From: Somniosus microcephalus
Lineage: Eukaryota
NCBI GenBank assembly: GCA_052327205.1
Contig: CM126207.1
Coordinates: 239,568,001-239,632,000 of the forward strand
Direction of reading: 5' to 3'
Length of the DNA stretch: 64,000 bases
Part shown: piece by piece, positions 4,334 to 45,764 of the stretch
How the letters are laid out: the number at the start of each line of letters is the position of its first letter
Position numbering within the stretch: the stretch's first letter is position 1
Translations under genes and position numbers: made by a program
Notes under the pieces: model-generated
Databases searched by the model: none
Told to the model about the DNA's origin: nothing
The model's input: only the letters and a program-made list of their open reading frames with translations

Positions 4334-4547
4334 TGACATAATAAAACTCACTACACACTTGGTTTGAGCATAATCAAATTGTTTCAGAACATGGAGGTCT
4401 AGTTGTACTTCACTAGTTCCTGTCTTACAAAATGTCCCTGCAAGCTGGGCCCACACCCGAGTATTTATACTCCTTGGACGGCGCCACCAGCTGGCCGTCC
4501 AATGTTATTTCATGAGTAGTTTCTTTATGATGATGAGATTTATAACA
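4334..4547 (-). repeat. 3' LTR of Gypsy element 1
   Basis: TG...CA ends; shares gtatttatactccttggacggcgccaccagctggccg (37 bp) exactly with 9021-9057; polypurine tract adjacent on the - strand. Confidence 0.75.
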
Positions 4548-4588
4548 TTCTTCCTGTCTAAAAGATTTAGAAGTCCGACGACTTCCTC

Positions 4589-7500
4589 CTAACGGATTAG
4601 GTGGACCACAAACAGCCGCAGTCTTTTAGATCTTTGTTTATGGCTGGAAGGCACGTCTCCCCGGACTGTGTCTTGGTCCCTGGGCCGCTTGATCCGTACC
4701 GGTGGATCAACAGGGCCCGTGTTGCCCTGATCGACCCGAGGGAGGCTGGGGAGATCGTGACTCCGGGTGCGGGTCCCCACAGGCGCAGAGCTGGCTTCAT
4801 CCTGTTTGATAGCCGGGGATTGACCAGCGTCCTGGCATCGGGTGGCCATCCCACGGGGAGCACTCGGCTCCCCGAGTAGATCTGGTGGGGCAGCCGGCAG
4901 ATCTCTCGATGTCCCAGGTAGGGCGTCATCTTCAAGGGAGCGCAGAGTGTCAGCATCATCACCGTGGGTCCCTCTATCAGTTGGGTCCGTGGGACCGGCT
5001 GGATAGGAAGCCAGGTCCCAGAGCAAAACGCTGGACTCCCGGTCATGAGGGTACCGCACGTGCGCGTACGTGGGATTAACATCCGTGAGTTCTACCTCGT
5101 CGACGAGGGGATCGTTTTTAGAAGATCGGACGAATCTTCGGAGCAGCACGGGGCCGGGCGCTGCCAACCATGATGGTAGGGACGTCCCATGAGTGGAGCG
5201 ACGCTGGAACCTGAAGAATCGCTCGTGAGGTGTGACATTGGTGGACGTAGAAAGAAGAGACCTGATGGAATGCAACACGTCAGGGAGCATAGTTTCCCAC
5301 TGCTGGTCTGGTAGGTTGCGTGACCTTAGTGCAAGACGAACAGCGTTCCAAATGATAACGTTGTATCTCTCAACCTGTCCGTTACCTATGGGATGATACG
5401 GTGTCGTTTTACTTGTGGCGATTCCCCATTGGGAAAGATAACTTTGAGTTCGCTTGACATGAAGGAGGGACCCCGATCAGAGTGGATGAAATTGGCCGTA
5501 CCGCAAAGGGAAAAGACTTGATCAAGGCATTTGATCACTGTGGAAGTAAGCATATTGGGACAGGGGAAAGCAAAGGGAAAGCGTGAATATTCGTCCACCA
5601 TAGTAAGTAAGTAGGTGTTTTGCGTTGAGGAAGGCAGTGGCCCTTTAAAGTCAATGCTGAGCCGCTGCATAGCATGTATAAGCGAGCCATCCGATGGACG
5701 GAAGAATTGCAGTTTTAATTCCACACAAATTCTACAGGAGGAGCATGTTCTTTTCACATCTTCTGTAGAAAATGGGAGATTTTTAAATCGCACAAAGTGC
5801 AACATACAGATAACGCCAGGATGGCATAAGTCAGTATGAAGATCTGCAAGAGTCGAAGTTGACATAGAAGAGCAGAATGCCCATGTGAGGGTATCTGGGG
5901 CCACATTCTCTTTGCCGGGTTGATAATGTATGGTGTATCCAAAGGCGGCCAATTCCATCCTCCAGAGTTGTATTTTGTTATTCTTGATCTTAGTGCGTTT
6001 CCGGTTATCAAGCATAAAGGCCACGGAGCGCTGATCAGTTATAAGTGTGAAATGGCGATGAGCGAGAAAATGACTCGATTTACGTACAGCTTCGATGATG
6101 GCCGTAGCCTCCTTCTCGACAGGAGGATAATGGAGCTCGCTACCTTGCAAAGTTCTGGACAGAAATGCAACGGGTCAACCACCTTGATTCAAGGTAGCAG
6201 AGATCGCCACATCCGATGCATCGTACTCAACCACGAAAGGAAGATTTTCATCAATGGAACGAAGCGTGGCTTTTTCCAGTTGTCGCTTGAGGAGGTTGAA
6301 AGCTGAAATAGTCAGTGCCTCCAACGGAAATGACTTTGCATGAAGCAGAGGCTGGATCTTGTTGGAGAAGTGGGGTATCCACTTCGCATAATAGGCGAAC
6401 ATGCCGAGTGCCCGACGAAGAGAGACGAGATTCGTAGGGGGAGGGAGCTCCTGAAGCGGACGAAGTCACTCCGGATCCAGTTTGATGACACTGTTGCCCA
6501 CCCAGTAGCCAAGGATGCTGACTGATGGTACTGATTTCACAGATTTGGACTCATTTAAGGTTAAGTTGCGACGACGGAGAACGTCAAAAAATTTCTGGAG
6601 GTTGGCATCATGCTCCTTCTGGTCATGACCAGCAATGGTGATATTATCCAGTTACAGATAAGTGTCCGTTAAGTTCTCCTGTTTGACTAGGCTATCCATT
6701 GCCCGTTGAAAGACGGCCACCCCATTGGTGACCCCAAATGGAAGGCGAGAAAACTGATAAAGCCGACCATTGGCCTCAAAGGCCGTATACTTTTTGTCAG
6801 AGTTCTTTAACGGTACTTGATGGTATGCGCTCTTTAAATCAAAAGTTGAAAATACCTTATAGTTGGCAAGATTATTGACCATGTCATCGATATGTGGTAG
6901 TGGGTAGGCATCCAGGTCAGTATACTGGTTAATAGTTTGCGAGTAATCGATGCAAAGATGTTTCTTGTGTTGCTTCAGAGGATTTTTAACAACGACGATT
7001 TGAGCCCGCCAGGAAGATGAACATGGCTCAATGATACCGTCAGCTAGAAGGCGAGAGATTTCTGCCTCGATAAAGGATCGATCATCTTGGCTGAAACGTC
7101 GTGATTTAGTGACTATGGGCTTACATCGGGGGGAAAGATTTGCAAACAAGGAGGGCTCATCGAGTGAAGCCGCCGAAAGTGCACAAAACGGTACTTTGGA
7201 AATAGTAAGCTCCGGCTTTGACCCTCCAAACTCGAAAGTGAGTCTTTTGTGTTGTTTCTGGAAATCCTGTCCCAGGAGCACATCACTGCATAGGTTTTTG
7301 AACACCCTGAGCCGGGTGGAGAAATAAGTGTGGCCATTTAGAATAAGGTCGACAAGACAAAAGCCGGAAGAATTGGTGGTCAGTGTCGTCAGAGCCATTG
7401 CAATTTCCCTGTCCAAGGGGTAAGTACGCAGTTTTAACTTACTGACAGCCCACTCACTAATTAAGCTGTCAGAGCTGCATGAGTCGATTCGTGCACTCAA

Positions 7501-8778
7501 AATGTGTCCATTTACCGAAACCTTCGTGGCTGCATGGGACAGACTTTGGGGGAAAACAGCTGTGATGGGAGGAGGGGCAGTTTTACACTTGACAGCTGTA
7601 ACCTTGGTAGTGCTTCTTCGGGGGGGGGGGAGCAGTTTTATAGATTGCAGCTGTAACCTTAGTAGTGGCTCTTGGGGGAGGAGCAGTTTTATAGATAGTA
7701 GCTGCAAAACTAACTGGGGCTCTCGACCGGTATACCTTAGAAAAGTGGCCTTTCTTACCAACAGAGGCTCTTGACTGGCATACCTTAGAAAAGTGAACTT
7801 TCTTACTGCAATGATTGCAGGTTGCGTTACGAGCAGGACAACATTTCCTATAGTGGAATGCACCTCCACAGAAGAAACACTTCCTTCCAGATTGCCAAGA
7901 TGCCGCTAGGGCAGGGCCGTCATCTGTGAAGGCTTCTAGGGTAGGGTTGTCATCCGCTAGGTTAGAGTCATCATCAGTGAGGGCTTCCGCCCAAGACCTA
8001 TCGAAGGAGTCATTAAAAGTGATAGCAGCAGCCCGTGCACGTGGTAAAAGATAGGTATCTGCATTCCTCTTTGCTAAGCTCAGGGAACATGCCTGGTCGT
8101 AGGCAGCCTGTAACTTGAGGGTATTATTCTCCAACAGACGCTGGCGTATGAAGGGAGACGTAATTCCGTTAATAAAAGAATTAGCTCCTTCTGGTACTGC
8201 TCAGCTGTAACAGCTTTAAGATTACAATCCTTGCTGAGCCTGCGAAGCTTTTGAAGGAATTCGTCAAGCAATTTCCCGGGTTGTTGTCGAGTAGTGGCCA
8301 GCAGATGCCAAGCAAAAATTTCGTTTGGGGCCTTAACATATAGTCGCTGTAATATTAGGATAGCGGAGTCATAGTCTACACAGTCTTCTGTAGTGTCCGT
8401 GTGTAGATAAAGACACTGAAGACAGGAGTTGGTTCATAGGTATTTACTAAGCAAGTCTGGGGGGGGGGGGTTCTAAAGGATATACACAATACACAGGCTT
8501 ATATAGCCCAAGTGGCAATTACCGGCATTACGCACACCTGGGGCTCTTAAAGGCACATACACCACAATTGCTCTTAAAGGCACATACACCACATCTTCGA
8601 TATAGTCAAACACATAAGGAGATACATAATTGGCAAGTATCTCTAATTTATCAGAAACATTCTCCCCACACACCCTGAGGAAGTTGCTGAAGATATGATA
8701 CCAGTGTTTCCATATCTTAGCAGTTGTAGGTGAATTCGGGTCCAGGCCAAGACGGGCAGGTCTGAGTCGTTTGTCCAT
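4589..8778 (-). pseudogene. Gypsy gag-pol, frameshifted and interrupted
   Basis: Fragments: gag MDKRLRPARLGLDPNSP (8778); CFFCGGAFHYRKCC and CNHCSKKVHFSKVC knuckles; protease IDSCSSDS; RT (YPLPHIDDM, FSTFDLKSAYHQV, LPFGVTNG, YL-DN split by a frameshift near 6650); RNase H (YDASDVAI, EKEATAI); integrase (SIDFKGPL, HSDRGPSF). Confidence 0.9.
8389..8593. mobile_element. Solo LTR inserted in the gag of Gypsy element 1
   Basis: TGTAGTG...CACCACA ends with 5-bp TSD TCTTC (8384-8388, 8594-8598). Removing it rejoins gag (YVFDYIED/CVDYDSAI). Its right end resembles the 40806-41006 LTR. Confidence 0.85.
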
Positions 8779-8881
8779 GATGGATTGATTGCTACGTCGG
8801 AGTTCCCTTCTACAGTTGAAGTCGTAGCTGGCTGTTCCCGAAATTACTCAGAGCGTGGAGCTGATACACAGTTGATTAAAT

Positions 8882-9090
8882 TGATGTAAAAAGACTACTG
8901 AGCTCTTGGTTTGAGTATAAAACAAGGCTTTAATCAACTGTTTCAAAACCATGAGATTTCTAGTTACATCACTAGTTCCTGGTTATAGAAACATCCTGAG
9001 CAATCTGCGCCCACGCCCGGGTATTTATACTCCTTGGACGGCGCCACCAGCTGGCCGCCCAGTGTTACTTCATGAGTCATGAAAAGATTC
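8882..9090 (-). repeat. 5' LTR of Gypsy element 1 (outer end probably truncated by CR1)
   Basis: Starts tgatgtaa versus tgacataa in the other LTR (both derivable from tgacgtaa by CpG decay); TATA-like gtataaatac on - at 9021-9030. Confidence 0.75.
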
Positions 9091-10945
9091 ATGACAGTCA
9101 GCATGGATTTGTTAAGGGAAGGTCGTGTCTGAGAAACTTGCTTGAATTTTTTGAGGAGGTAACAAGGAGGGTAGATGAGGGTAGTGCATTTGATGTAGTG
9201 TAATTGGACTTTAGCAAGGCTTTTGATAAGGTTCCACATGGCAGACTGGTCACGAAGTTAAAAGCCCATGGGATCCAGGGCAAAGTGTCAAGTTGGATTC
9301 AAAACTGGCTCGGAGGCAGGAAGCAGAGGGTAATGGTTGATGGGTATTTTTGTGACTGGAAGGCTGTTCCCAGTGGGGTTCCGCAGGGCTCAGTACTAGG
9401 TCCCTTGCTTTTTGTGGTATATATCAATGATCTTGACTTGAATATAGGGGGTATGATTAAGAAGTTTGCAGATGATACTAAAATCGGCTGTGTGGTTGAT
9501 ACTGAAGAAGGAAGCTGTAGACTACAGGAAAATATCAATAAATTGGTCAGGTGGGCAGAACAGTGGCAAATGGAATTGAATCCGGAGAAGTGTGAGGTAA
9601 TGCATTTGGGCAGGGCTAACAAGGAAAGGGAATACACATTAAATGGTAGTGTTCTGGACTTATTACATGCAGATAGCACCCTCTAGTGGTAGTTAATGTA
9701 TAGCAGTGTTAGTATACTCGAGAGGTCATTTGACCTAGTTCCTGTCTCAACCCGGAAGTAGTTTTTCAGAAAGAACTTACTGAGTAATGGAGAATCCCTC
9801 ATGTGAGATCCTCAATCCAGTGCCATCTCATCTCATATGCAAGGCCAGATGCAATGTCTGTGAGTATCTTTGTTTGTTAACATGATAGCAACTTTGTCAG
9901 TGTAGTATTTGACAATACTTTGTTTATAAGAAGTTAGTAGTTGTTAGCTACAGAAGTCTAGCTCAAGTGCCATTTAGTTATACAATTAATCTATTCTATT
10001 GTTATAAATATGTTTATATCTTATGTAACATCTAATGTATAGTACTTAGTTCTATGTACCAAACATACTTTGTCTTTGTTTACAGTTTCACAAATTTGTT
10101 GAAGTAAAGCTTCAAAACAGCAAACCGGCTTCTCGAGGAATTATTTGAATAAGTGTTTAGCTTGCTGGATAACTAGATAGGAGCACGTCTAGCGAGACCA
10201 GTACAGGTAGGACACTGAATAGTGTAGAGGAACAAAGGGACCTTGGAGTGCATGTCCACAGGTCCCTGAAGGTAGCAGGCCAGGTAGCTAAGGTGGTTAA
10301 GGCGGCATACGGAATGCTTGCCTTTATTAGCCATGGCATAGAATACAAGAGCAGGGGGGTTATGCTTCAACTGTATAAAACACCAGTTAGGCCTCAGCTA
10401 GAGCACTGTGTGCAGTTCTGGTCCCCACATTACAGGAAAGGTGTGATTGCACTAGAGAGGATACAGATGAGATTTACTAGGATGTTGCCGGGAGTAGAGC
10501 ATCTTAGCTATGAGGAAAGACTGGATAGGCTGGGTTTGTTTTCCTTGGAACAGAGGAGGCTGAGGGGAGACCTTATTGAGGTGTATAAAATTATGAAGGG
10601 CCTAGATAAAGTGGATAGAAGGGACCTATTTCCCTTAGGAGAGGGGTCAAAAACCAGGGGGCACAGATTTAAAGTAATTGGTGGAATGTTTAGAGGGGAT
10701 TTGAGGGGAAATGTCTTCCCCCCCAGAGGGCTGTGGGTGTCTGTGGAGTTTGGAACTCACTGCCTGAAAGGGTGGTAGAGGCAGAAACCCTAACCACATT
10801 TAAAAAGTACTTGGATGTGCACTTGGGATGCTGTAACCTGCAGGGCTACGGACCAACAGCTGGGAAGTCGGATTAGGCTGGATAGCTCTTTGTTGGCTTG
10901 CGCGGACGCAATGGGCTGAAATGGCCTCAACTTTCTATGATTCTA
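9091..10945 (+). mobile_element. 5'-truncated CR1 LINE (RT and 3' UTR), interrupted by a solo LTR
   Basis: SQHGFVKGRSCL, DFSKAFDKVPH, GVPQGSVLGP, KFADDTK, VRPQLEHCVQFWSP, RRLRGDLIEVYK; tail ending in ttctatgattctat. Confidence 0.93.
9650..10205. mobile_element. Solo LTR (556 bp) inserted in CR1
   Basis: TGTTCTGG...CCAGTACA termini with TSD GGTAG (9645-9649, 10206-10210). The sister CR1 copy near 63705 shows the empty site (aaatggtaggacactgag). Confidence 0.9.
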
Positions 10946-10946
10946 T

Positions 10947-11362
10947 ATTTAAAATTAATTAAAATACAATTTAATTAAATATTTTTTTTTTTAATTAATT
11001 TTTTGAAAAATAAATCTAAATGTTTTAAAGAGGCTAAAAATAACAGTACCTTATTTTACAGGTGTTTTAATGTTTAAATGATTGAAAAAATTATTTTTAT
11101 ATTCATTGAAACTCTTACGCTGGTAAAAGCAGGCTTTACGCCTGCTTTTACCAGGCATAAGAATTTCACGGGCATTCACAGGGCAGTAGTTGGGCAAGCC
11201 AACTCTCTGCCCTTCTCCCGGGGATGTGGATGATCTGTCAAGAAGATTCTTGACAGATCACAAGTTCCGGGTTTTTGCGCATGCGCTTCGCACGCGAAAA
11301 CCCGGAACTTGCAGGGCCCTTACGGGCGCGTATGCACCCATAGACACCGAAAAATACGGGTC
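10947..11362. mobile_element. Partial Harbinger-type MITE (one half), similar to 53860-54251
   Basis: AT-rich core followed by cttacgctggtaaaagcagg...cctgcttttaccagg and a TIR-like end aaaaatacgggtc. Confidence 0.6.
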
Positions 11363-11802
11363 ATTAAATTCAAAACTTCATTTGTTGATGGGAGGGGTCT
11401 TATCATATTTCTCACTTACAATAGCAGTATTACAATGCTCTTTTCTCTGTCACAAAGCTGAATCACATACTCAAAATATTCTGATTAACTAACTAAGCTT
11501 TTAGTTTAAGTTAGATGGGAGTTTTGAATATTTATTTTTAAATATTTGGTGTTGATGCTATCAACATGGGATGGCAAATAGGAATCGCTAAGTGCTATAA
11601 TGACAAATAATTGAATTTTATCAGTGGACACAGTAATTAGCCTTAGGTGCTTCAGTGATCATATTGAGTATCTTTATTCAAGTCCACATACAGGCACTGT
11701 AACTTCTGAAAACCAGTTTTGCTAATAATATCATTGGCACTCAAATCTTACGTACTTCTAGAAATGCATTTGAAACATTTAAAGTCAAATTTCTAACACT
11801 AT

Positions 11803-12518
11803 GGCCCAGATTTTACAGGGCCTATGATGGCGTACACACAGTGTACATCGTCGTAAGTGCTCCGCAAGTTCTAGCATGCGCGAAAACCCAGAACTTGCTA
11901 TGTCAATTGACTTTCGCTGGCACAGAGTTGGGCTATTTGCCCAGCTACTGCCCAGCGAATACCCACCAAACCCTTACGTCTGATAAAAGCAGGCATAAGA
12001 CATTCTTTTACCAGCGTAAGCGTTTAAATAAATGTTAAAATAACATTTTTTAAATGATTTAAACATTCCCTTACATTTAAAATTAGGTTAGGTTATTTTT
12101 GTCCCATTTAAAAATGTTAACATTTATTTTTCAAAAAATTAGATTTTTATTTTTAATTTTTAATTAAATGGTATTTTAATTAATTTTGAACCTGTGATTA
12201 ATTATTTTTATTTCAGTGTTGTGAAATTGTATTTTTTAGGGGATTCCTATTATGCTTATGGGGATTCCATACATAAATGGAATTCCCCTAAGCATAATAG
12301 GAATCCCCCTTTGTCATTGGCTGGGCTGGCCTACATGATCCCAGGGATGCTTGCGAACCGCATGCACCCCTGGGATACGTGGGCCTTTACGCAGACGTAC
12401 GCCAGCAGGCCCAGGACCGCAAGAGTTCGAAGGTCCGCAGGCAGCAGGTAAGTGCAGAGTTTTCTTGCGGTTCGGTAGTGTTCGCCCACAGCAAGCCTCC
12501 GACTGTAATTTCCAGGCC
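11803..12518. mobile_element. Harbinger-type MITE, family A
   Basis: Ends ggcccagatttt / aatttccaggcc; flanks TAT/TTT. Reverse-complement homologue of 53538-54251 along its length. Confidence 0.8.
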
Positions 12519-13751: not shown

Positions 13752-14184
13752 TGTAGTGGCGCTTCTTAGTTTCCAAACAGGCAGCCACTGAGCTGTGGGG
13801 CTGTTAACAACGAGTAGACGCGTGTCGAAATAAAACGTTCCCAAACGTAGCTTTGTCTTTTAAACTGTTTACTATAACACTTCACAAACGGAATTACAAA
13901 GCAAACACGTATAAACGAACACGGTCAAAAACTGTATTGCTCCAAACCTCACAACTTCTGCCTCCTTCAGCCACGTGGAGTTTAAACTGTAAAATGGCTG
14001 CGTACCATGTGTGGCTTAAGGACTGTACCATTGTGGCGAGAATGAAGGGGGTGTCTCGGACTATACTACTGGAGCAAGAAAATGGGGGGTTTCTTAATAC
14101 AATAAGTCAATCAGGTAAATTAACTGTATTATGCTATTTAACCAATATTTTAAAGTATTTTCTTAAGCTTTTATGGCTCTTACA
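13752..14184 (-). repeat. 3' LTR of BEL/Pao element
   Basis: Direct repeat of 20609-21041. Confidence 0.97.
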
Positions 14185-14305
14185 TTCCGGCCCCTAATTG
14201 ACTAGGCACATGAAGCGTCTCAATTACTCAAACATTAAGAGTCATAAACTAATGAGTTCAACATATTTACAATATAAGTGTCCACTTTTTTCGTTCAGGA
14301 GCTTT

Positions 14306-17300
14306 TCACGCTGCTTCTTGTAGCAGGCAGAGCTTGGTGATCGGTCTTTCCAGGGTACTGGTCTTGGTTTGCAAACAAACGCGACGAACGACGCCTCTGG
14401 AGTCTGGCATGGTCTTAATTATTTTTCCCATCAACCAAGAATTTCTAGGGGCTGAATCATCCACGATTAAGACAGTGTCTCCGACAATGAAGTTCCTCTT
14501 TATTTTGGACCATTTTTGACGCTCCTGTAGCAGAGGTAAGTATTCTCTTGTCTATCTGGTCCAGAAAAGGTCTGACATATACTGAACTTGCCTCCACTTC
14601 CGACGGGCATACAGATCTTCCTTTTTGAAGACTCCCGGGGGCATGGCTGGCTGTGTTTTCAACAACAACAGGTGGTTCGGAGTCAGGGCTTCCAGGTCGT
14701 TGGGATCAGCTGATGTCTTAGTTATCGGTCGGTCATTAATGATGGCTTCGACCTCGCACAGAACGGTTTGGAGTCCCTCGTCGTCGAGCACTTGCTGCTT
14801 CAGTACAGAACTGAGTAGTTTTCTTACGGTGCGTATCTGTCTTTCCCAGACACCTCCATGGTGGGATGCAGCCGGAGGATTGAAGATCCACTTAATTCCT
14901 GTTTGCATCATGGCTTCCTGTATTTTAAGCCGATTCCAACCTTCAATAGCTTCCCGTAGTTCTCTCTCCGCTCCGACGAAATTAGTGCCATTATCAGAAC
15001 GCATAATGGACACCTGACCTCTTCTACAGACAAAGCGCCGCAAGGCGTTAATACAGGAATCAGTGTCAAGCGTGTGTGCCACCTCAATATGAACTGCTCT
15101 GATGGTCAAACAAGTGAAAAGCACACCATATCTCTTGACAAGGCTCCGTCCTCGCTTTACCTCGAAAGGCCCGAAATAGTCCACCCCTGCGTTTGTAAAT
15201 GGGGGCTTGTCTGGTAACAAACGGTCTTCAGGCAGGTCTGCCATTTTCTGCTCCCCAGCTCTAGCGTGTAACCGTCTGCAAACAATGCATTCAGAGAGTA
15301 TTTTTCTTATTACAGAATTAGCTCCTGGAATCCAGTATCTTTGTCTTAGCTTCGCAAGCACGTGATTCCTCCCACTGTGTCCAATACTCTGGTGTATATG
15401 CTGAAGAATGAGAGTAGCAACCCGGAGGTCCTTAGAAAGGATAGCAGGATGCTTGGCCTCCTCTGGCATAGCAGATTTGTTTAGTCTCCCTCCCACCCTC
15501 AGTACTCCATCTTGCAGTGTAGGATCCAGCTTGTAGATATGACTACCTTCCTTGATTGGAGTATTTCGCTGTAAAGCTTCGATTTCTTCTGGGTATCTTT
15601 GTCTTTGACTGAAGCAAACTATCTCCATCTCAGCCTTGGCCAAATCCTCCACGGTCAATGAATTCTTACCCAATGTGGTCTTGTGCTGATGCATATACTG
15701 CTGTCGAAGCATTCTCTGCTTATCGGGGTTACTTTCAGACTGACTGATAGTGGCTCGGTACTCTTTTCTCTTACCGCTCAGGTGTAGCAGCAACTCTTTC
15801 AACCTTAGAAACCATGCAACTGCTTTCCTCAACTGGTGCCATCCTGAGAAATGGTTAACAAGCTTGTTCACTGTGTCAAAGTTCTCTTTCGTAGTTATGA
15901 GATTTACTGTGACTGATCTCTTGACTTCGACGTCGTCTTCAGCAATCTGACTTGGCATATCTGGTCTTTCTGGCCATGATCTCTCTGTTTCCAGCAGATA
16001 ACTTGGGCCTTGTATCCAAGTTTCACTCCTCATGAAGTTTTCAGCCTTCAATCCCCGTGAGGCTTGATCTGCTGGGTTTAATGAGGTGTTTACATACCTC
16101 CATTGAGATGGTTGTGTAGCTTCTCTAATGGATGAGATTCTGTTTGCTACGAAGGTCTTGAAGCGTATCTTCTCATTCTCTATATACTTCAGCACCGTCG
16201 TGCTATCCGTCCAGAAGACAGATTCTTCTAGTGGGAGCTGTAACTCTTTCCGCATCGCCTGGTCAACTTTAACTGCAACAACCGCTGCCGTCAACTCCAG
16301 TCTCGGGATGGTGATCTGCTTCAGCGGAGCCACCCTGGATTTCCCCATGAGGAAGGCACAATGTTTCTGGCCCTGTTGATTTGTCAGCAAGAGGTAAGCA
16401 GCCGTGCCATAGCCGTCCTCACTGGCGTCCGAGAAATGATGTAGTTGAGCCGTCTTTGTAACTCCAAAACTCACGGGCTTGATGCATCTACTGACGTTGA
16501 AGCTAGAGTGTTGTTGCAAATCTGTCAACCATCTGAGCCATCTCTGAGCTTGACCTTCTGGGATATCTTCATCCCATCCTCTCTTGTCTCTACACAGCTC
16601 TCATAGCATCAGCTTCACCGGCAGAATGAGTGGTGCCAGGAATCCAAGAGGGTCGTAGATGGAACTGACCACGGAGAGAATCCCTCGTCTTGTGGATGGT
16701 CTTTCGTTCACCATTATCCTGAAGTTGAACGTGTCTGACTCAATGCACCATTGTACACCAAGAGCTCTCTCGATAGGAAGGACATCGTGGCTCAGGTCCA
16801 GATCTTTGACTTCAGTGGCTCTTTCCTTTTCTGGGATAGAAGCTAGAACTGCTCTGCTGTTGCTTAGCCACTTAGTCAGATGGAATCCTCCATTCGAACA
16901 CAGAGTTCTAAGGTCTCTTGACAGTGCGATGGCATCGTCTTCTGTTGACACGGACTTCAGACAGTCATCGACATAAAAGTTTCTGAAGATTGTCTCCACA
17001 GCCTCTGATGGTGCTTTGCCTTTGCCATCTTCTGCAGTTTTTCTGAGAGCGTAGCTTGCACAGCTGGGAGATGATGTGGCTCCGAACAAGTGTACGGCCA
17101 TTCTACATTCCACCATCGCTTGACTAACGTCGCCATCTGGCCACCAAAGGAAACACAGAAGATCAGCATCTTCATCAGGGATTCTGACTTGGTAGAACAT
17201 TGATTCTATGTCTGCCATCATGGCAACGAGCTCTTGTCTAAACCTGGTCAAGACGCCAATGAGGGTATTAGTAAGATCAGGACCTTGAAGCAGCTGGTCA

Positions 17301-20300
17301 TTCAGTGAAGTTCCTCTGAATGAGGCGGCGCAGTCAAACACTACACAGATCTTTTTCTTCTTTGGGTGATACATGCCGTGATGAGGAATGTACCAGACCC
17401 TTCCATCGTCTCTGTTCAACTGTTCCTCGGGCACTTTTACAGCATAGCCTTTCGCTATGATGTTTCTCATGAAGCCTTTGTAGTCTTCGTGAAAGTCGGG
17501 GTTCTTGTTCAGCTTTCTCTTTAGACTGATGGAGCGTTGCTCTGCTATGCAGCGATTGTTCGGCATCTTCGCGGTCTGTCTTCTCAGTGGCAAACTAATG
17601 TGATAGTGGCCATCAATGAACTGTGTAGACCTTGTCATCAAATCCATGAACTGATGGTCTTCTTGTGACATCTCTGTCTTTTCCTCACAGCTGCGTTCTG
17701 AAAAGTCTGCGTTGAACTGCTGTATCAACAGCTCTTCAATGCTTGCGATAGAGATGCGATTAACTGTGACATTTTGTCGTTCCTCCTTGTTCGACTTGTT
17801 GCCATCATCTCTCCTTACCGGTCCATTGACTACCCATCCAAGGGCTGTCCTGACGGCGTAGGGTCCGTCATCCTTGCTGTTTATCACCTGCCGTGGCTCC
17901 ATAGTTTTGTAGGCATTGGTTCCAATTAATAGGCCAATTTCTGCTTCAATGTATGGGAGACGCACCTTTTCTAGGTAAGGCCATCTATCCACATCCTTCT
18001 GCAGGGCTAAGTTCCCTATTCTAACAGGAATCTCCCTCTGTGTGAAAACATTAGGCAGGTCTATGAAGTCCTTCTCTTCAAGTCCACACACTTCTAAGTC
18101 TGACAGGATATAACTTTGCATTGACTTCTCATGACCCATGGTGCGTAATAGGATTTCTGTTCTTCTGCCTCTAACGTTCAGCTGTCGCATGAGTGATTCT
18201 GTGCAGAACGTTGCTGAACTACCTGGATCCATGAAGGCATAAGTCTCCACAAGCTTCTCGCTCCTCTTAGACTTGATCTTTACTGGTACGATGGCAAGAA
18301 TACAATCACTGTCACCGGCCCCAGTGAGTCCACAAGTCTCTGGTTCTAGCGACACCAGAGCACTTGAAACAACCTTCTCGTCGGTATTGTTTTCTTCACT
18401 CTTCTTAGAGACTTGTTCTTCTTTATGGATATGCAGCAGACTGGGATGTTTCCGAGTGCACTCTCTGCATGTTGTTCTTTGCTTACAGTTTCTACTCAGG
18501 TGCCCCTGAGAGAGACATCCAAAACATAGGCCGTTGTACTTCAGGAATTCGATTCTGTCCTTATGTGGCTGTGCTTTGATGTCGCTGCAGAAATCCAATG
18601 TATGATTCTTCTGGCAGAATAAGCATGGCTTCTGAAAGGCATTAGCAGGCGTCACTGTGCTGCTCTTTTTGGGAGATGAGTTCTGGGGCCTTTATTCCTC
18701 GGCCTGAGTGACGATAGTTGCAAAGTTGCTTCCCCTGGAACCACCTTTCCTGAGAGTCTTTGATTCAACAGGCTTGGCTTTCACTCTTCCATCGGTGGTC
18801 GGGCTGGCGTCCTGGATGTTTCCAAACAATGGGTCCCTAGCAATTTTAGCCTGTTTGTCTATGAAATTCACTAAGTCTGCAAACCTGGCTCTACTTTTCC
18901 GTCTCTCCATTATCTCAAAGGCTGTTCTTCTCCATTGTTCTCTCATCCTGTAAGGAAGCTTAGAGATGATGATTCTCATAGTCGTAGGATTGTCCATCTC
19001 TTCCATGAATTCAACATCCTCCATGGTGTTGCGACATCCTATGAGGAAAAGAACATATGCGTTCAATGCCTCTCCATCCTCCGATCTGATCTGTGGCCAC
19101 TTGGTAGCCTTTTCAATATACGCAGTGGCTATCTTCAGCTCGTTACCATAGTGCTCCTGCAGCAACTTCCTGGCTTCTATGTATCCCCGGTCCGGTCTCA
19201 TGTGTTCACAGCTTCTGACCAGGTCTTGTGGTTTACCACTGGTGTACTGTCCCAGGTAGTACAACTTATCACTGCTGCTCTCTGTCTTGGAGTCAATGGC
19301 TTGTTCAAAGGATCTGATGAAGGGCTTATACTTGAGTGGGTCGCCTTGGAACACTGGTATGTCTCTTTGAGGGAGTCGAAACAGATTCTGTTGTTTTACA
19401 AGCATCTCTGTAATTTCGTTCTGACGTTGCATCACTCGGTATAGGCTTCTCCCTGTGTCTTCAGGCCTCTGGTGGTCATCAGCAGGGTCTAGTCTAGACC
19501 GTCTGATGTCTGGGGTAGCATCACGTGCTCCTGTTAGTGGAGAGGCCACTCTTCCACGCTGTAATGCCAGGGGATTGCCTTCGGACTCTCTTGTAACTCT
19601 TGAAGGTGCCCTGGATCCAACTCTATGTGACAACATTGACTGGCAGTATTCGCTCCCGCCGTCCCGTGAGCCTTCATAATCTTCATACGCACTCAACCTG
19701 GCGTCTGAGACCGCGATAGCTGTTTTTATCTCCAGCTGTTCTTTCTTTGCCTGCACCTGGGCCTGCAGTTGGGCCTGCACTTGGGCCTGCAGTTGGGCCT
19801 CTTGGACCTGCAGTTGGGCCTCTTCCCGTTCAAGAGCTTGCTTCTCCGCTAAAGATGCTGCGCGCGCCATCAACGCCGCCCGTTCAACCTCCTCTCTCAT
19901 GCGTCGCGACGAGCTTGTGGTAGAAACGACTGACCTGCGTCCAGAAACAGAGCTACCTTCTTTTCGATTTTTGCTCGGCCTGGCGGAAGTCTCTGAAATG
20001 CTATCGTCTGGTCCGACTTCATCGTCAACTTTATCTTTCTCTGCTGTATCAGCATCTTGACGAATCTTTAACATCCACTGTTCTGTGGCCTTGATATAGT
20101 CCTTAATGCTGGTTGATTTAAGATCAAACCAGTTGTGCTGATCAGCGTTTCCCTCTTCTTCAGACAGAAGTGCTAATACATCTTCATTGAGTACATTAAA
20201 TTCTTCATGCAGCTTGGAGAAATCGTAATACATTATGTCTTCAGCTTTCTTAATATTAGCATTATCTTCCATGAGACGATCAATTATCTTCATTTTTCCA

Positions 20301-20446
20301 GTTATCTGAGCTAATTTAGCCTTCCTTGCACCTATGCTTCTATGTAACTTCTCTTCCATTGCCTTTGGGGGGAGCTTTATTTCCCTCTTTTGGCCAGCAA
20401 TCCTTCTGGCTGGGGGAAGCTCCTGGCTCCGTAAGGCCTCGGCCAT
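14306..20446 (-). pseudogene. BEL/Pao gag-pol polyprotein: one reading frame with three premature stops (18692, 16601, 14552)
   Basis: The three ORFs (20446-18692, 18655-16601, 16528-14552) and the tail to 14306 are in the same frame. Motifs: FQGDPLKY gag; three Cys/His knuckles (CLFCQKNHTLDFC, CFGCLSQGHLSRNC, CRECTRKHPSLLH); protease FMDPGSSATF; RT YIPHH, LFGATSSP, FYVDD; Pao RNase H HHFSDASEDGYG, TIPRLEL; integrase GVDYFGP, SDNGTNF, GGVWER. Confidence 0.95.
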
Positions 20447-20608
20447 TTTACCCGCAGCTCTTATTTAGCTTCTCAATAGAATGAACAAAGCAAGTAACAG
20501 TCACTGTACCTTCGCTTTCTTATATTGTCGTCTGGCTCCGTGACCATTCATGTATACGTTCGCCGACGATTCCGTCCTTTCCTTCTTAGGGAGCAAGTTT
20601 TTGACTAT

Positions 20609-21041
20609 TGTAGTGGCGCTTCTTAGTTTCCAAACAGGCAGCCACTGAGCTGTGGGGCTGTTAACAACGAGTAGACGCGTGTCGAAATAAAACGTTCCCA
20701 AACGTAGCTTTGTCTTTTAAACTGTTTACTATAACACTTCACAAACGGAATTACAAAGCAAACACGTATAAACGAACACGGTCAAAAACTGTATTGCTCC
20801 AAACCTCACAACTTCTGCCTCCTTCAGCCACGTGGAGTTTAAACTGTAAAATGGCTGCGTACCATGTGTGGCTTAAGGACTGTACCATTGTGGCGAGAAT
20901 GAAGGGGGTGTCTCGGACTATACTACTGGAGCAAGAAAATAGGGGGTTTCTTAATACAATAAGTCAATCAGGTAAATTAACTGTATTATGCTATTTAACC
21001 AATATTTTAAAGTATTTTCTTAAGCTTTTATGGCTCTTACA
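20609..21041 (-). repeat. 5' LTR of BEL/Pao element
   Basis: Direct repeat of 13752-14184. Confidence 0.97.
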
Positions 21042-36295: not shown

Positions 36296-36652
36296 TGTGG
36301 AGGAGCCACAAGAGACTCAGTGTACTTTAGTATAATCCCCTTAATTGTATTATAGTGCAGCCGGGGACTGCACCTTTAAATTGATTGTTACCTTTACAGT
36401 GTGTGTTTGCCTTTATCCTGCGTGGCGACGTCATGACGCTGATCACGTGACCGCCAGTGGTGCGAAGAACGTGGGGACGTCATGACATCAGCTTAGAGAG
36501 CTTTCCAGCAGTCTTCGACTACCTGGCATCTTGAACGAACGTGTTTTGATTTCCTCCTTGTAACATCCAGCAAACTTCGTTGTTATTAAATTCCAGCCTT
36601 TTAATCCGTCGAGTTGAGCTGAATTATTTAGTTAGGAACCTCCATTCCTACA
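36296..36652 (+). repeat. 5' LTR (357 bp) of CsRN1-like element
   Basis: TGTGGAGG...TTCCTACA; near-identical to the rejoined 3' LTR. Confidence 0.95.
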
Positions 36653-36653
36653 T

Positions 36654-36665
36654 TGGTGACCCCGA
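36654..36665 (+). promoter_or_regulatory. Primer binding site, tRNA-Trp type
   Basis: TGGTGACCCCGA one base after the 5' LTR; complementary to the tRNA-Trp 3' end, as typical of the CsRN1 clade. Confidence 0.85.
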
Positions 36666-36697
36666 TCTCGTCGAACAAACTTCGAAGAGAATTCAAC

Positions 36698-37345
36698 ATG
36701 AGCACAAATGCCATCGCCCTCAAATTGCCTCAGTTCTGGGAGCAGCAACCAGAAGCTTGGTTCCTACAGACGGAAGCACAGTTTCACCTGCGGGAGATCG
36801 TAGCGGATTCGACCCGTTATTTTTACGTGGTCTCCGCTCTCGACAGCGCCACGGCCTCGAGGGTCGTCAGCCTACTGAGCAGTCCACCAGACGAGGGCAA
36901 GTATGAGGCTCTCAAAGCTCGTTTACTGCAAATATTTGGCCTTAACAAATCAGAGCGCGCACGCAGGCTCATTACCATGCCAGGCATCGGGGACTCAAAG
37001 CCTTCGGAATTAATGAGCCAAATGCTCACCCTACTTGGTTCGGAAGACCAATGTTTTTTATTCCGAGAACATTTCCTCTGCCAGCTACCTGACGCGGTGC
37101 AGACAGCCTTGGCCAGCTCTGAGATCACTGACTGTGTTAAGCTCGCGGCAGAGGCAGACAAAATTTTTGCAGACTCACAGCAGTGCTGTACAGCCACGAG
37201 GCGTCCTTCTCCTGCGTGTGCGAAGCCCAGCCCTCCTCCAGCAGGCTGGTGCACGTACCACGCCCGTTTGGGCGCCAAAGCTCGATGCTGCAAGCCTCCC
37301 TGCAGTTTCTCCCCCCAAAAAATCCTTAGCAAGCCATTGACCTGA
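36698..37345 (+). CDS. Gag (CsRN1-type)
   Basis: ATG at 36698; [34 protein letters not shown] and a terminal [19 protein letters not shown] motif; a C/A-run possible frameshift site near 37311-37322. Confidence 0.85.
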
Positions 37346-37349
37346 AAAG

Positions 37350-40300
37350 CACGTTCAATTTACCATGGCGGTCGGTTGAACGGGGAAATTACTTTATGTT
37401 ACGGATTCCACAACGGGGAGGCGATTCCTCTGCGACACTGGGTCCCAGTGCAGCATTTTGCCAGCTTCCAGGCTGGATCTACAATCCGGCGGCCGCAGCC
37501 CTGCACTCGAGGCAGCCAATGGCGCGGCGATTCGCACTTTTGGGAAACGGACGGTTACCGTTACTTTCGGCGGTCAGCAGTTCCTCTGGCAATTTATCAC
37601 TGCCAGTGTCACAGGCCATACTAGGAGCCGACTTCTTTTGTGCAAATGGTTTTCTAGTCGACGTCAAAATCTGCCGCCTTATTCACGCGTCCACTTACCA
37701 TGCGGTGCCCTGCCACCGCAGCACCGCCATGTCCTGGTCGGTCGCCTGGGCGGTACCAGTTCAACATGGGTTTACACGCCTACTCAGCGATTTTCCAGAG
37801 CTCACCCGGCCTACCTTCTCAGTAGCAGTCACGAAACATGGTGTGGCACACCATATCACCACGAATGGATCACCGGTTTATGCCCGGGCGCGCAGGTTAG
37901 AACCCAGCAAACTCGCGGCGGCTAAAGCCGAATTCCAAACAATGGAGCGCCTCGGGATCGTCCGACGCTCCGACAGTCCTTGGTCCTCTCCACTGCATAT
38001 CGTCCCCAAACCAGGTGGAGGGTGGCGGCCTTGCGGTGATTACAGACGACTAAACGATGCCACGACTCCTGACAGGTATCCCATACTTCATATCCAGGAT
38101 TTCTCAGCACATTTGGCTGGAAACTCTTCAAAGGTGGATCTCGTCCGCGGGTATCACCAGGTTCCGGTGCACCCACAAGATGTTCCCAAGACGGCAGTCA
38201 TCACACCTTTTGGCCTTTTCAAATTTCTCAGAATGCCTTTCGGGTTAAAAAATGCAGCGCAGGCTTTCCAGCGGCTCATGGACTCTGTTTTACGGGATTT
38301 GCCTTTCCTTTTCGTATATCTGGACGATATACTCGTCGCTAGCAAGAACCCCAAGGAACACTTGTTACATCTACGCCAGCTCTTCACTCGGTTAAGCCAA
38401 CATGGCCTCATTGTCAACCCGGCCAAATGCCAATTCGGTCTCACCAGCATCGATTTCCTGGGGCACAGGATAACATCAGACGGCGCCGTTCCACTAGCCA
38501 CCAAGGTCGAGGCTGTTACAGCTTTTCCACGTCCCCTCGCTGTTAAGTCCTTGCAGGAATTCCTGGGGATGGTTAATTTTTACCATCGTTTTGTCCCCAA
38601 GGCAGCGCAGTTGATGCAACCGCTGTATGAAGCACTGAAAGGGAAATCTGGCAAAGACCTCATCAACTGGACTCCCCAGATGGACCAGGCCTTCCTAGAT
38701 ACCAAAGCAGCACTGGCAGATGCAACCATGCTGGCACACCCTATTCCAGGTGCAACCATCGCTCTCACGACGGATGCTTCGGACTACGCCATTGGAGCGG
38801 TGCAGGAGCAGTGGGTAGACAGGACTTGGCAGCCGCTGGCCTTTTTCAGCCGCCAACTACGCAAGAACGAACGCAAGTACAGCACGTTCGATAGGGAGTT
38901 GCTCGCCCTGTTTTTGGCTATTCGACATTTTCGCTTTCTGCTAGAAGGACGCCCGTTCACCGCGTTTGTGGACCACAAACCACTCACGTTTGCCATGGCC
39001 AAAACGTCTGAAGCTTGGTCAGCGCGGCAACAGCGCCACCTCACCTTCATTTCGGAATTCACCACCGATCTATGACACGTCTCGGGCAAGGACAATCTCG
39101 TGGCCGATTGCCTCTCCCGCGCTCCTGTCCTGGCAGTTAACCTGGGCGTCGATTTCGCTGGCTTAGCGGAAGAGCAGTTGGCTGACCACGCCTTCCAGTT
39201 GGCAAGTCGCTGTCGTTCAGTTCCACTCAGCAGGAACCACCCTTTTGTGTGACATGTCCATGGGAGTGCCTCGTCCCATAGTGCCGGTCGAGTGGCGCAA
39301 GAAAGTCTTTCGGGCAATACACGGGTTGTCGCACCCAGGGATTCGAGCTTCGCAACGTCTCATGTCCCGCAAGTTCGTGTGGAAGGGCATGCACTTAGAT
39401 GTCCGAGATTGGACAAACAATTGTATTGATTGTCAAAAAGCGAAAGTCAACCGGCATGTTAAAGCCCCTTTGGCTGAGTTTCCAGTGCCAGAACGACGGT
39501 TTGACCACGTGCACGTGGATCTAGTGGGTCCTCTCCCCGGTTCACGGGGTTTCACGCATCTCCTCACAATAGTGGACCGCACCACCAGGTGGCCAGAGGC
39601 GATTCTGTTGGTCGTTACCACTACAGCTGATATTGCCAGGGCATTCCTGTCGTCGTGGGTGGCTCGCTTCGGTGTCCCATCCGACATATCATCGGACCGA
39701 GGCCCACAATTCACTTCCGAATTATGGAATGCCGTTGCACATGGCTTAGGTACCAAGCTACACCGTACCACCGCCTACCATCCGCAGGCGAATGGCCTGT
39801 GCGAAAGGTTCCATCGGTCGCTTAAGGCATCTCTTCGTGCCAGCCTGTGCGGATCCAACTGGGTAGACAGATTGCCTTGGGTGATGCTGGGGCTAAGGAC
39901 GGCTCCCAAGGAAGACCTTCAGTCTTCATCAGCTGAGTTAGTTTACGGGCAAACCTTGAGGGTCCCTGGTGACTTCCTGCCTCCGCATACAGAACCGTGG
40001 TCTGCAACTCAGCAACTTATCCAGCATCGCGAGGCAGCCAAGAACATCCTGCCCATTCTGACCTCGCATCATGGCTGACAGAGGCCTCACGTTCCTGCGG
40101 ACCTCATGTCCGCCGATTATGTCTTCATCAGGCACGACACGCACAGAGACCCACTTAAACCACCATACGCCGGCCCATTTCGTGTCATATCTGCCGGTGA
40201 GAAATATTTCACCGTCGACGTAGGCGGCAGACCGGACACCATCTCCATCGACCGTCTGAAGGCCGCTCACCTCGATCGCACTGAAACAATAGTGCCTGCC

Positions 40301-40537
40301 CAGCCACCTCACCGAGGACGACCGCCGTTGCACGCTGATTCATCATTACAACAGCCAGCCATTGAACCGCCTACAGATGCCTCACCATCGTTTTCGCAGT
40401 CAGACACTGCGTTCGCCGCACCTGACACGCCGCAACAACCACAGCCAGGCTCCATGCTTTCTCCCGACGTTCCACTTCCACCGCCTGAGGGTCGTCGACG
40501 CTCGGAGAGAACCATCAAGTTTGATACTGGCCATTAA
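37350..40537 (+). pseudogene. Pol (protease, RT, RNase H, integrase) with frameshifts and stops
   Basis: FLCDTG protease; [24 protein letters not shown]; TTDASD RNase H; HGLSHPG...CIDC zinc finger; HVDLVGPL, SDRGPQF, NGLCERFH integrase; PYAGPF GPY/F module. Spread over several frames. Confidence 0.92.
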
Positions 40538-41093
40538 CGGGGATTCTGGGGGGGCGCCTGTGGAGGAGCCACAAGAGACTCAGTGTACTTTAGTATAATC
40601 CCGTTAATTGTATTATAGTGCAGCTGGGGACTGCACCTTTAAACTGATTGTTACCTTTACAGTGTGTGTTTGCCTTTATCCTGCGTGGTGACGTCATGAC
40701 GACGATCACGTGACCGCCAGTGGCGCGAAGAACGTGGGGACGTCATGACGTCAGCTTAGAGAACCTTCCAGTAGTCTTCGACTACCTGGCATCTTGAACG
40801 AACGTTGTTAGATCCGTGGTTCAGTGGATAAATAATTACACGGATGCTGTACATAAACAAATAACAGGTCTTCACTGGAGGAGGGTAATCTCTAGACTGG
40901 GGTACAGAGGCAGGCGCACAGCTTATATACCGGTGTGGTCACTGCCGGTACTACAGTATACAGGAGCTGTAAAAAGTAGTTCTGACTTAAAGGCACATAC
41001 ACTACAATTCCTCCCTTTTTAGATTAATAATACCCCCTTAATATTCAAATAACAATTACATTTTTACATGTACATTCAATAACAAAAGTCCAT

Positions 41094-44000
41094 TTATAGA
41101 TTCAGTCTTTGGGGCGGCTTCCTGACCCTTTCGGGATAGCGCCTTTCCAGAGGTTCTTGTTCTTGGTGCAGAGGCGATTCTGACCCCCTTTCATCGGGTA
41201 GTTCATCGGGTTCCACTGCTACGGGGTCTGAAGTAGATACTACCGGTATGTCGGGTTCATCCCCAGGTACTCGAGACATGGGGTTGACGCATTCCTGTGA
41301 TGCTAAGATCTGATCGACGTGGTGTCTCACAATGTTCTCCCCGACATCCACTGTGTACATTAATGGCCCCTGCCTTGTACATATCGTTCCGGGTTGCCAC
41401 TTCTCTGTTCGATAGTCCCGGGTCAAGACTGGTTGCCCTACATTGAAGCTCCTTGTCGGCTTCTCGTTGATGTGCTGGAATTGTTTGTCCTCAACATTTC
41501 TTCGCGCATTTGGTCTGAGCAAGTCCAGACGAGATCTCAACCTTCGGTTAAAGAACATCATGGCCGGGGTCTGGTTGGTAACTGCATGTGTCGCGTTTCG
41601 GTCGGCTAATAAGAAATTGTCCAGCTTATGCTGTAGTGGAATTTCCTCGTCGCACATGGCCTTTATCGCCTTCTTAAAGGTTTGTACGAACCTCTCAGCC
41701 AATCCATTGGTGGCTGGATGATACGGGGCGGATGTGTAATGCCTTACCCCATTCCTTTTCATGAATTTTTGGAACTCGTCGGACACAAACTGTGGTCCAT
41801 TATCAGAGCAGATCTGCTCTGGCAACCTGTTTCTGGCAAATATGGTCCGTAGGACTGCAATCGTTTTCTCTGTAGTGGTTGAAGACATCTTTATCACCTC
41901 AGGCCACTTTGAATGAGCATCCACGGCTATTAAGAACATTGAGTCCATGAATGGACCAGCGAAATCAATGTGCACCCGTTGCCATGGAGAGGAGGGCCAC
42001 TCCCATGGGTGTAGAGGGGCATGTGGTGGTGCATTTTGGACCTTCTGGCATCCTAAGCAGCTCTTAGTTAGGTCTTCGATTTGTTCATCGATTCCCGGCC
42101 ACCACACATAAGCCCTAGCTAGGCTTTTCATTTTCACTCCCCGCAGATGACCTTCATGTAGCTTATTTAGCACTCTCTCCCTTAACTTGGGTGGAATCAC
42201 CACTCTGGATCCACACATCACTGTCCCCTGGCATACTGACAGCTGTTCTCTTCTGGATGAGAATGCTGGCAACAGTGAGTCGCCATGTGTTGGCCATCCC
42301 CTCACCGTCAATTCATATACCCGTGACAGCGTCGGATCATTGCGGGTCTCCTTCTCTACATCCGCGTTTGTTACTGGCAATCGTTCAATTATCGACGAAT
42401 AAAATATCTCGATAGGGTCCACTGCTGGTGCTTCCTCCACAGTAGGCAGTGGCAGGTGCAATAGCCCATCAGCGTTCCCATGCTGTCTCGTGCCTTTATA
42501 TTCTATTTCATATTGATTCGCCCCTAGAAACAGGGACCATCTTTGTAACCGCTGTGCAGTCATTACTGGCACGCCCTTCTTAGGATTAAAGATGGAGACA
42601 AGTGGTTGGTGGTCAGTCAGCAAGGTGAACTTCTGTCCATGCAGATAGTGGTTGAATTTTTTTACTCCCCATACTAGGCTGAGGGCCTCCCTGTCAATCT
42701 GGGCATAGTTGCGCTCGGCTGAGGTTAGTGACCGAGACGCAAAGGCTACTGGCCTCTCCAACCCGTCTGGGAATTTGTGCGACAGCACCGCTCCAATGCC
42801 GTAGGGTGATGCATCACATGCCAAACGAATTGGTAGTGCTGGGTTGTAATGGGCCAACACTTCTTTTGATGTGATCAATTCTTTACACTTCTGGAAAGCT
42901 CGTCTACGTTCGTCATCCCACTTCCATGGTACCCCTGTTTGCAGTAGGGTGTTCAGCGGGTGTAATACCGTAGACAAATTTGGTAAGAACTTGTGGTACT
43001 AGTTTACCAGCCCGAGGAACGACCTCAGTTGTGACACATTTTCCGGTGCTGGAGCCTTGACTACTGCCTCTATCTTGTCAGGGGAGTTATGTAACCCCTC
43101 TTCATCGATGACGTGGCCGCAATACGAGATCTGTTTCTGGAAAAACTGGCACTTGTGGCGATTAGCTCGTAGCCCATATTCCTTTAATCTGGTGAGCACC
43201 TCCTCCAAGTTAGCGAGGTGATCACTGTCATTTTCGCCCGTGACCAAGATGTCGTCCAAATAACACTGGGCCCCTGGAATCCCTTGCAGGAACTGATCCA
43301 TCGCCCTTTGCCAGATAGCCGGAGCCGAGGCTACTCCAAACACCAGCCGGTTGTATTGATAGAGACCTTTATGGGTGTTGATCGTAAGGTAATGTTTCGA
43401 AGCTTCTTCTACCTCCATTTGCAAGTACGCCTGGGCTAGATCAATTTTGGTGAAGCGTTTACCACCAGATAGCGAGGCGAAAATATCCTCAATTCGTGGA
43501 AGCGGATATTGCACCGTGTGAAGGACTGGGTTCACTGTCACCTTAAAATCCCCACAGATACGGACCTTCTTTGGTTCCCCAGACGTATTACTCAATGACC
43601 TCTTCATTACAGGAACGATGGGTGTAGCCCACTCGCTCCAGTCCACTTTGGACAGTACTCCTGAACGTTCCAACCCTTCCAGCTCTGCTTCAACCGCTGG
43701 TCTGATCGCATAAGGCACTGGTCTGGCCTTCAGAAACTTTGGGCTTGCATTATCCTCTATTTTAATTGTTGCTGTTATTCCTTTTAGTGTTCCTAGTCCC
43801 TCCTGGAACACTTCTTTTGCGTCAGTTAGCATTTTTGACAGTCGGCCAGGTGTGACGTCGTCATCCTTTTTGGCCTCCACCTTCAGTGCCTGTATGGAAT
43901 GCCAATCTAAATGTATCTTCCGGATCCATTCACGTCCTAGCAGTGGTGGTCCTGCATTTGGCAATACATATATATCCATTTTAGGTATTTCCTGACCTTT

Positions 44001-45170: not shown

Positions 45171-45320
45171 AAAATGGCGTCTCCCGCGCTCTTCCTCCTT
45201 CTCCGCGGCTCAATGGCGCCTCCCGCGCTCTCCCTGCTTCTCCGCGGCTCAATGGCGTCTCCCGTGCTCTCCCTGCTTCTCCACGGCTCAATGGCTTCTC
45301 CCCTTGCTTCGCCCCGCGGA
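45067..45320. repeat. About 39-bp tandem repeats in the 5' leader of the Mag-like element
   Basis: caatggc-led units start at 45211, 45250 and 45289 (the first reads caatggcgcctcccgcgctctccctgcttctccgcggct), with degenerate copies from 45067. Confidence 0.85.
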
Positions 45321-45754
45321 CCCTGATCAGCCTATGATCCCTGGCTGTGCTCTGCGCGTTCTTCTCTTGATATTTGTCGACGCCGCTCAGCCTAGAACCC
45401 GGCTGTTTCTTACCCTCTCTGTCTCCGGTTTGCAGTAGTTTTCCTCGACGCCGCTCGGTGATCAACCCCCGGCTGCGCCCTGCTCTCTTCACCCTCTTTC
45501 TTACCCCGTCGACGCTGCCCAGCTCTCTCTCTCTGCTGTCGGTCGGCTCCAGCCGCCGCTGCTCGGGAAGGGTCTGCTCTGGACCTGTCGTCGGTCTCTT
45601 ACTGCTCGTTGTGGCTGGGGAACCAAGCCCGGCTCTCCACAGTCTTCCCAGCGAAGTTGGATCTCTGCCTGACTGCTGGGCGGTTGCTCGCGGTCGACGC
45701 CCGTGTTCCTGGACTCGATATTTTTTTAATGTTGCAGGTAGATTCGCATCAACA

Positions 45755-45764
45755 CTCGTCGCCA
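45755..45764 (-). promoter_or_regulatory. Primer binding site, tRNA-Ser type
   Basis: TGGCGACGAG on - one base inside the 5' LTR boundary. Confidence 0.8.

Follow-up and report, generated by a model that had tools for sequence, protein, structure and literature searches.

The window, the whole 64-kb stretch of DNA analysed here, carries on its minus strand a degenerate Ty3/Gypsy element, recognised by its long terminal repeats (LTRs), its polypurine tract and its gag-protease-reverse transcriptase (RT)-RNase H-integrase order. The Ty3 RT was the top solved-structure match (79.8 bits), and neither a chromodomain nor env was seen in its coding region (4976-8778). The features of the element are listed below; the candidate transcription start was placed by the spacing between a TATA box and its start.

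4334-9096 (-): degenerate Ty3/Gypsy element, defined by LTRs, polypurine tract and domain order
8882-9096 (-): 5' LTR, 215 nt, TG...CA, bounded by alignment to the 3' LTR and by loose ends at 8882
9022-9029 (-): TATA box TATAAATA, starting at 9029, the same in both LTRs
8996-8999 (-): candidate transcription start, A at 8997, at the usual spacing after the TATA box
8929-8941 (-): predicted self-primer arm in the 5' LTR, from pairing, folding and covariation
8934-8929 (-): ATTAAA, a poly(A)-signal variant, closing the arm
8939 (-): initiator-like AGT in the arm
8901-8928 (-): GCC and a hairpin opening at the end of the duplex, imperfect in the window copy
8881 (-): spacer of one base, A, separating the LTR end from the primer site
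8868-8880 (-): putative primer-binding site, complement of 8941-8929, without TGG
4976-8778 (-): broken gag-protease-RT-RNase H-integrase region with several stops and frame changes and one nested insertion
8389-8593 (-): TG...CA insertion of 205 bp within gag with a 5-bp duplication on its flanks, probably another element's solo LTR
4548-4559 (-): polypurine tract
4334-4547 (-): 3' LTR, whose subfamily type is not that of the 5' LTR and whose arm region has a gap of about 12 nt

The window copy is dead, and its value is that of a witness. Its LTRs are identical in 168 of 197 aligned columns and no target-site duplication is present at its flanks. The copy is probably a chimera or recombinant, because reads of related species hold two LTR types, each of which resembles one of the LTRs found here. 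The end of the 5' LTR at 8882 is backed by heterogeneous loose ends (agreement 0.34-0.42) that related species show there in their reads and contigs. Around the gag-protease junction (7568-7804) there are tandem duplications, one of about 50 nt in three copies and one of 48 nt in two, and a 28-nt piece of the insertion at 8389-8593 matches 40986-41013, so that the insertion may be a solo LTR with kinship to the element there.

The first-pass annotation of this DNA had described a perfect fold-back of the putative primer site into the LTR and the lack of a tRNA-type TGG, and both observations hold: 8880-8868 (13 nt, minus strand) is the exact reverse complement of 8941-8929 in the element's own 5' LTR, is preceded by A at 8881 and has no TGG. 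Each 13-mer of the pair occurs once within the 64-kb window. When the 215-nt LTR was dinucleotide-shuffled 20,000 times, 2 shuffles reached a match of at least 13; so did, as a point in favour of chance, 16 of 9,113 sampled window positions. The folding of 8941-8868 gave z = -4.2, with 1 of 200 shuffles equally good. The TATA-like box reported about 80 bp upstream is also present, as TATAAATA starting 88 nt before 8941. The initiator-like CAGT exists (8940-8937), albeit one base inside the arm rather than at the beginning of the segment, where it had been placed, and the terminal ATTAAA of the arm is a feature absent from that annotation. Reads and contigs show that the window family has other letters at 8867-8869 (e.g. 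43-44 of 63 reads in one direction at 8868-8869 in RNA run X24) and also an LTR variant with one extra base at 8939; combined, these would again give 13 pairs, the variants being unphased in these tables. In a second subfamily, represented in reads and contigs of related species, duplex positions 12-13 differ on both sides and re-pair, likewise unphased.

Relatives were gathered with a Gag N-terminal alignment, which retrieved 80 of 84 confirmed metagenome loci. At least 150 nt upstream of gag was available for 72 of 81 sequences, the window included, and these, at 80% DNA identity, make up 20 families. When the longest perfect inverted repeat was sought blindly, it measured at least 11 bp in 40 of the 72 loci and 16 of the 20 families (window included), against 2/72 loci and 1/20 families in gag and 0/62 further upstream. 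Four families fell below the 11-bp cut-off: in two the pairing spans 15-17 nt with one wobble or mismatch, in one it is weak and in one (L043) it is absent. Anchoring on CA plus one base retained 21 of 23 representatives, with L043 and L019 failing, and the removal of L044 and L002 (wrong anchors, short upstream DNA) left 19 families. Among these, Watson-Crick pairs occupy 220/228 cells at positions 1-12, which were used in anchoring (swap mean 145), and 45/57 at positions 13-15, which lie outside it (swap mean 25), neither value being reached in 20,000 swaps; these counts are of sequences and overstate independent events, since the families are related and contig names suggest few source data sets. 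Positions 16-18 are at chance level (16/57 pairs, swap mean 17), and the duplex is about 15 bp long with a clear end. Across 21 rows, a site forms on average 12.7 of 14 pairs with its own arm and 7.6 with that of another family. A plain, sequence-only MAFFT alignment of 16 of the families, its rows selected among families with pairing, has 97.5% of 203 cells paired, compared with 21-47% in slid controls. Compensatory changes affect 11 of its 13 pairs, with 41 cells altered on both sides and 22 further pair types across the 13 pairs, a result matched by 0 of 500 shuffles. Covariation of the two segments across related families, which the first-pass annotation had proposed as a check on its reading, is thus found both in the own-pair counts against swaps and in the 11 of 13 compensated pairs.

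The anatomy around the duplex is similarly conserved. The primer site begins one base after the CA of the LTR in 19/19 families (CAA in 18, CAG in 1), TGG occurs at the site in none of the 19, and the loop between arm and site measures 24-60 nt. Arms end in ATTAAA or AATAAA in 10 of the 19 families, several others have near-variants there, and pairing is kept where they end in TGAAGA, TCAAAA, GTTTAA or CATGAA. Directly after the arm comes RCC in 14/19 families (GCC 11, ACC 3), and a stem of at least 4 bp opens there in 14/19, compared with 4.9 in shuffles (sum 80 vs 53, 0/2,000). The mean length of this second hairpin, 4.2, is only a modest excess over the 3.05-3.9 of stems at neighbouring offsets, and in the window copy the hairpin is bulged or imperfect. 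Members of the clade typically have a single ORF of about 1,200 aa, LTRs that measure about 200-240 bp where both were observed, and a 5-bp target duplication, and in three young relatives (L007, L010, L013) such duplications fix the LTR ends. The complementarity, its fixed position and its covariation are demonstrated by these data, and a chance match or local inverted duplication in the window copy is refuted by position-fixed, covarying pairing over families that share 46-75% RT identity. Two minor observations concern the same upstream regions: GTGGCGC, a possible promoter element, was noticed by eye 11-20 nt before the TATA-like box in the window (9050-9029) and in L022, L030, L048 and L005, and L056 (183-250, 3956-4053) has two copies of the primer site upstream of gag and a third after the 3' LTR match, reflecting either a tandem arrangement or a collapsed assembly.

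A protease-RT search returned 1,125 proteins at E <= 0.001. The best 120 of these have 49-71% identity and include many single ORFs of about 1,200 aa, and the named matches among the same 120 come from prawns, mantis shrimp, lobster, sea louse, soft coral and leafhopper. An RNase H domain is present in 40/40 full-length relatives and a chromodomain in 0/40 (Pfam, E 0.01), nor was one found in the ORFs of the window. In a quick RT tree, 39 rows (the window element, 12 loci and 26 proteins, of which 20 were drawn at random from closer matches and the remainder were further ones) form one clade with an SH-aLRT of 100, on a stem of 0.89; the 25 other Gypsy RT rows, all unnamed and including the two TGG-primed elements of the window, fall outside it. 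Membership of the Tf1/sushi chromoviruses is not assigned, as no chromodomain was found and the RT tree holds no named chromovirus. Some members of the Tf1/sushi branch lack a chromodomain, and its absence alone leaves kinship possible. A 'Mag C-clade' label was dropped; RT identity to the window's other element that we take to be Mag-like is 30%. Used alone as a query, the Gag N-terminal piece had no homologues, the ESM Atlas gave matches only to generic retrotransposon Gag clusters, and 17 and 24 pattern matches in viral contigs yielded 0 confirmed cases. The LTRs of Cigr-1 measure about 245 bp and its single ORF about 3.6 kb, which would fit the 1,200-aa single ORF of the clade. Compared by description, the Cigr-1 clade is a lead only, and identity with a MolGy clade is also possible. 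The Cigr-1 clade is recorded from Ciona and also from molluscs (PMC6238403).

An LTR element needs a primer at this position, no tRNA site is present in 19 families and the element's own LTR segment is offered there with its 3' end toward U5; on these grounds we infer, with a probability of roughly 0.8, that the clade primes minus-strand DNA synthesis with its own RNA. A segment within the 5' R of the genomic RNA would anneal over 12-15 bp to the site one base past the LTR, and the RNA would then be cut at the 3' end of the duplex (8929/8928), where the RCC-opened hairpin begins, with the element's RNase H the likeliest agent, as in Tf1. By analogy, Tf1-like chemistry with a cut at 8929/8928 is probable. 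The freed 3'-OH would be extended through U5, and strand transfer would get its overlap from a poly(A) site shortly past ATTAAA in the 3' LTR. If the primer is copied in plus-strand synthesis, the primer site would be rewritten, which would keep both arms matched and may set the 15-bp length; more speculatively, that length might be set by how far apart the polymerase and RNase H sites lie.

Three other readings accept the pairing and assign the primer or the purpose differently. In the first, the primer would still be self-derived but act in trans, either as the arm of the 3' R copy or as a short RNA of the LTR alone, terminated at the 5' poly(A) signal, in each case trimmed to the arm. In every transcript the same arm does shortly precede the predicted poly(A) site, and LTR-only copies outnumber internal sequence by contig depth in related species, but the short, bounded loop of the 19 families and the hairpin within it suit an intramolecular fold and the Tf1 precedent acts in cis, so that a trans primer is regarded as unlikely. 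The second reading holds that the fold-back only hides the poly(A) signal of the 5' LTR and that the primer is something else. The partner of the arm lies outside the LTR, so the fold is possible only at the 5' LTR, many arms end on a hexamer or a near-variant, as described above, and with a start near 8997 the RNA would contain a live hexamer, about 63 nt in. Pairing nevertheless persists with the four other arm ends, the partner is always one base past the LTR end, which occlusion would not need, and no family retains a TGG primer site; occlusion as the sole function is therefore improbable. Under self-priming the duplex can also hide the hexamer, in the 5' LTR only, and masking of the 5' poly(A) signal is likely to be a second role, yet not the whole story, because families without the hexamer keep the duplex. 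In the third reading, the primer would come from the cell (a tRNA fragment, an snRNA or some other RNA), with the LTR match as a decoy or by-product. Half-tRNA primers without TGG are known in Copia lineages (PMC6317226), but here the site varies by family and tracks its own LTR, and one conserved host RNA cannot fit all, which makes a cellular primer very improbable. No tRNA gene was found in the window, and an Rfam scan of 8700-9200, which is insensitive to short complements, gave one chance-level match, outside the LTR.

Self-priming in a chromodomain-less Gypsy lineage, as the first-pass annotation proposed by extension from Tf1, is strongly supported by covariation, by TGG in 0/19 families and by a chromodomain in 0/40 relatives; for its further proposal, that the primer would be the 5' end of a transcript beginning at 8939-8941, there is evidence on both sides. 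An A sits 11 nt away from the arm's 3' end in 14/19 families, usually in AGT and within a pyrimidine-AGT motif, and this position favours a terminal primer in matching the 11-nt primer of Tf1. A terminal primer is disfavoured by pairing that is maintained to about position 15, upstream of that A (45/57 at positions 13-15 vs an expected 25), and the mostly pyrimidine 5' end of the pairing also counts against it. A TATA-like motif 36-50 nt before the end of the arm (about 30 nt before the arm) occurs in 0/19 families, and one 100-127 nt before the arm's 3' end occurs in 5/19, an interval chosen after looking. In the window copy the A at 8997 is 32 nt past the TATA box common to both LTR types, and a start near 8997 is suggested by this conserved TATA position, which fits a 5'-terminal primer poorly. 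Two RNA runs of a related species (X23, 864 reads; X24, 3,219 reads; likeness 80) show no begin or end peak in the LTR, 0 joints and no poly(A) tail among the loose ends listed (394 more lie beyond these), with both mate directions present. A capped 5' end as primer, with a start at 8939-8943, is possible at somewhat less than even odds, and much the same may be said of an internal segment of a longer leader that starts near 8997. Both starts could be in use, since Tf2 has alternative starts and includes the primer in only one (PMC5341516). A possible splice at the YAG inside the arm was rejected: 0 joint reads were found in both RNA runs, the YAG is itself paired and such splicing is unnecessary. 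More tentatively, a start well upstream (about 8997), an internal R primer cut at the arm/RCC junction and a 15-bp duplex masking the 5' poly(A) signal may together constitute one RNA switch for full-length transcription and the start of reverse transcription, and a tRNA-free priming origin separate from that of the chromoviruses, a combination that we hold to be rather doubtful as a whole. If true, it would represent a form of self-priming unlike that of Tf1 in a widespread animal Gypsy clade.

In Tf1 the first 11 bases pair and RNase H cuts between bases 11 and 12 (PMC7175516), and a DNA copy of the primer is made at the end of the cDNA (PMC11042837); for Tj1 of S. japonicus self-priming is inferred (PMC4600332). 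According to PMC6317226, described self-primers are confined to Tf1/sushi, including the plant Tcn1, and they are proposed there for Copia TAR. Tf1/Tf2 of Schizosaccharomyces pombe, Tj1, Tf1/sushi and Tcn1 likewise combine the Ty3/Gypsy order with no tRNA site and an LTR-adjoining site complementary to an LTR segment (PMC7175516, PMC4600332, PMC6317226, PMC5341516). Likeness to Tf1 extends to the A 11 nt from the predicted cut in 14/19 families and to extra structure beside the duplex, the latter known on the Tf1 side from reference titles. The clade described here differs from Tf1/sushi in having no chromodomain (0/40), a duplex of about 15 rather than 11 bp, an arm that usually ends on a poly(A) hexamer and an RT clade of its own with a long stem, in a tree that contains no named chromovirus; its start may also lie about 56 nt upstream. 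Outside Tf1/sushi, the Copia TAR lineage (Houba, Osr-1) has predicted self-primers with a complement of at least 10 bp, 0-5 bp past the LTR (PMC6317226), but belongs to another superfamily and to plants. The dictyostelid Skipper chromoviruses are also Gypsy elements without TGG, but have a polypyrimidine stretch with no LTR complement (PMC5006619). The words 'PBS' and 'primer' are absent from PMC6238403, and term look-ups in PMC6238403, PMC2836005, PMC3026039, PMC13524379 and PMC2774666 turned up nothing on self-priming. No treatment of a self-priming, chromodomain-less animal Gypsy clade was found by title in the literature searched, which excludes Repbase Reports and most subscription journals, and an earlier description is possible; the name 'Selfy' had no match in the same literature.

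A covarying self-primer in a large chromodomain-less animal clade would mean that tRNA-free priming is commoner than the described cases and probably arose repeatedly or is old, and would bear on the proposal that hairpin priming is older than tRNA priming (PMC3601003). Its elements would also be without the tRNA site at which tRNA fragments act (PMC7472051), and tRNA-based annotation would list them as lacking a primer site. Furthermore, the predicted cut at 8929/8928 and the rival starts at 8939-8943 and about 8997 render the mechanism directly testable.

Several other mobile elements share the window, whose repeat content suggests an animal host, probably a fish-like vertebrate; one of the sequencing runs listed for it is a fish gut metagenome. 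A young BEL/Pao element (13752-21041, minus strand) has 433-bp LTRs that are 99.8% identical, a 5-bp duplication and no TGG past its 5' LTR. The corresponding site at 20608-20597 has a 10-nt complement within its own LTR at 20790-20781, a length reached in 97 of 20,000 shuffles, and self-priming in a second superfamily is possible from this match. Two further Gypsy elements, at 36296-40813 (plus strand) and 40806-46080 (minus strand), have ordinary TGG primer sites. They have LTR pieces in common (36535-36652 with 45963-46080; 40806-41007 with 45766-45966), which suggests a rearrangement between them. ORFs at 60376-61542, 58788-59915 and 505-1548, all on the minus strand, presumably encode a Harbinger-type transposase and partner proteins, with no Pfam match to the ORF at 505-1548. 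The A/T-rich element at 10948-12190 has terminal inverted repeats of 100-113 nt at 70-79% identity and related copies near 53544-54203, and is probably a non-autonomous DNA transposon. LINE-like RT fragments, which we take to be CR1-like, lie at 9097-9686 and 10173-10940 on the plus strand and abut the 5' LTR of the self-complementary Gypsy element, whose other flank is unrelated to them; their 5' end meets the LTR start with a few shared bases.
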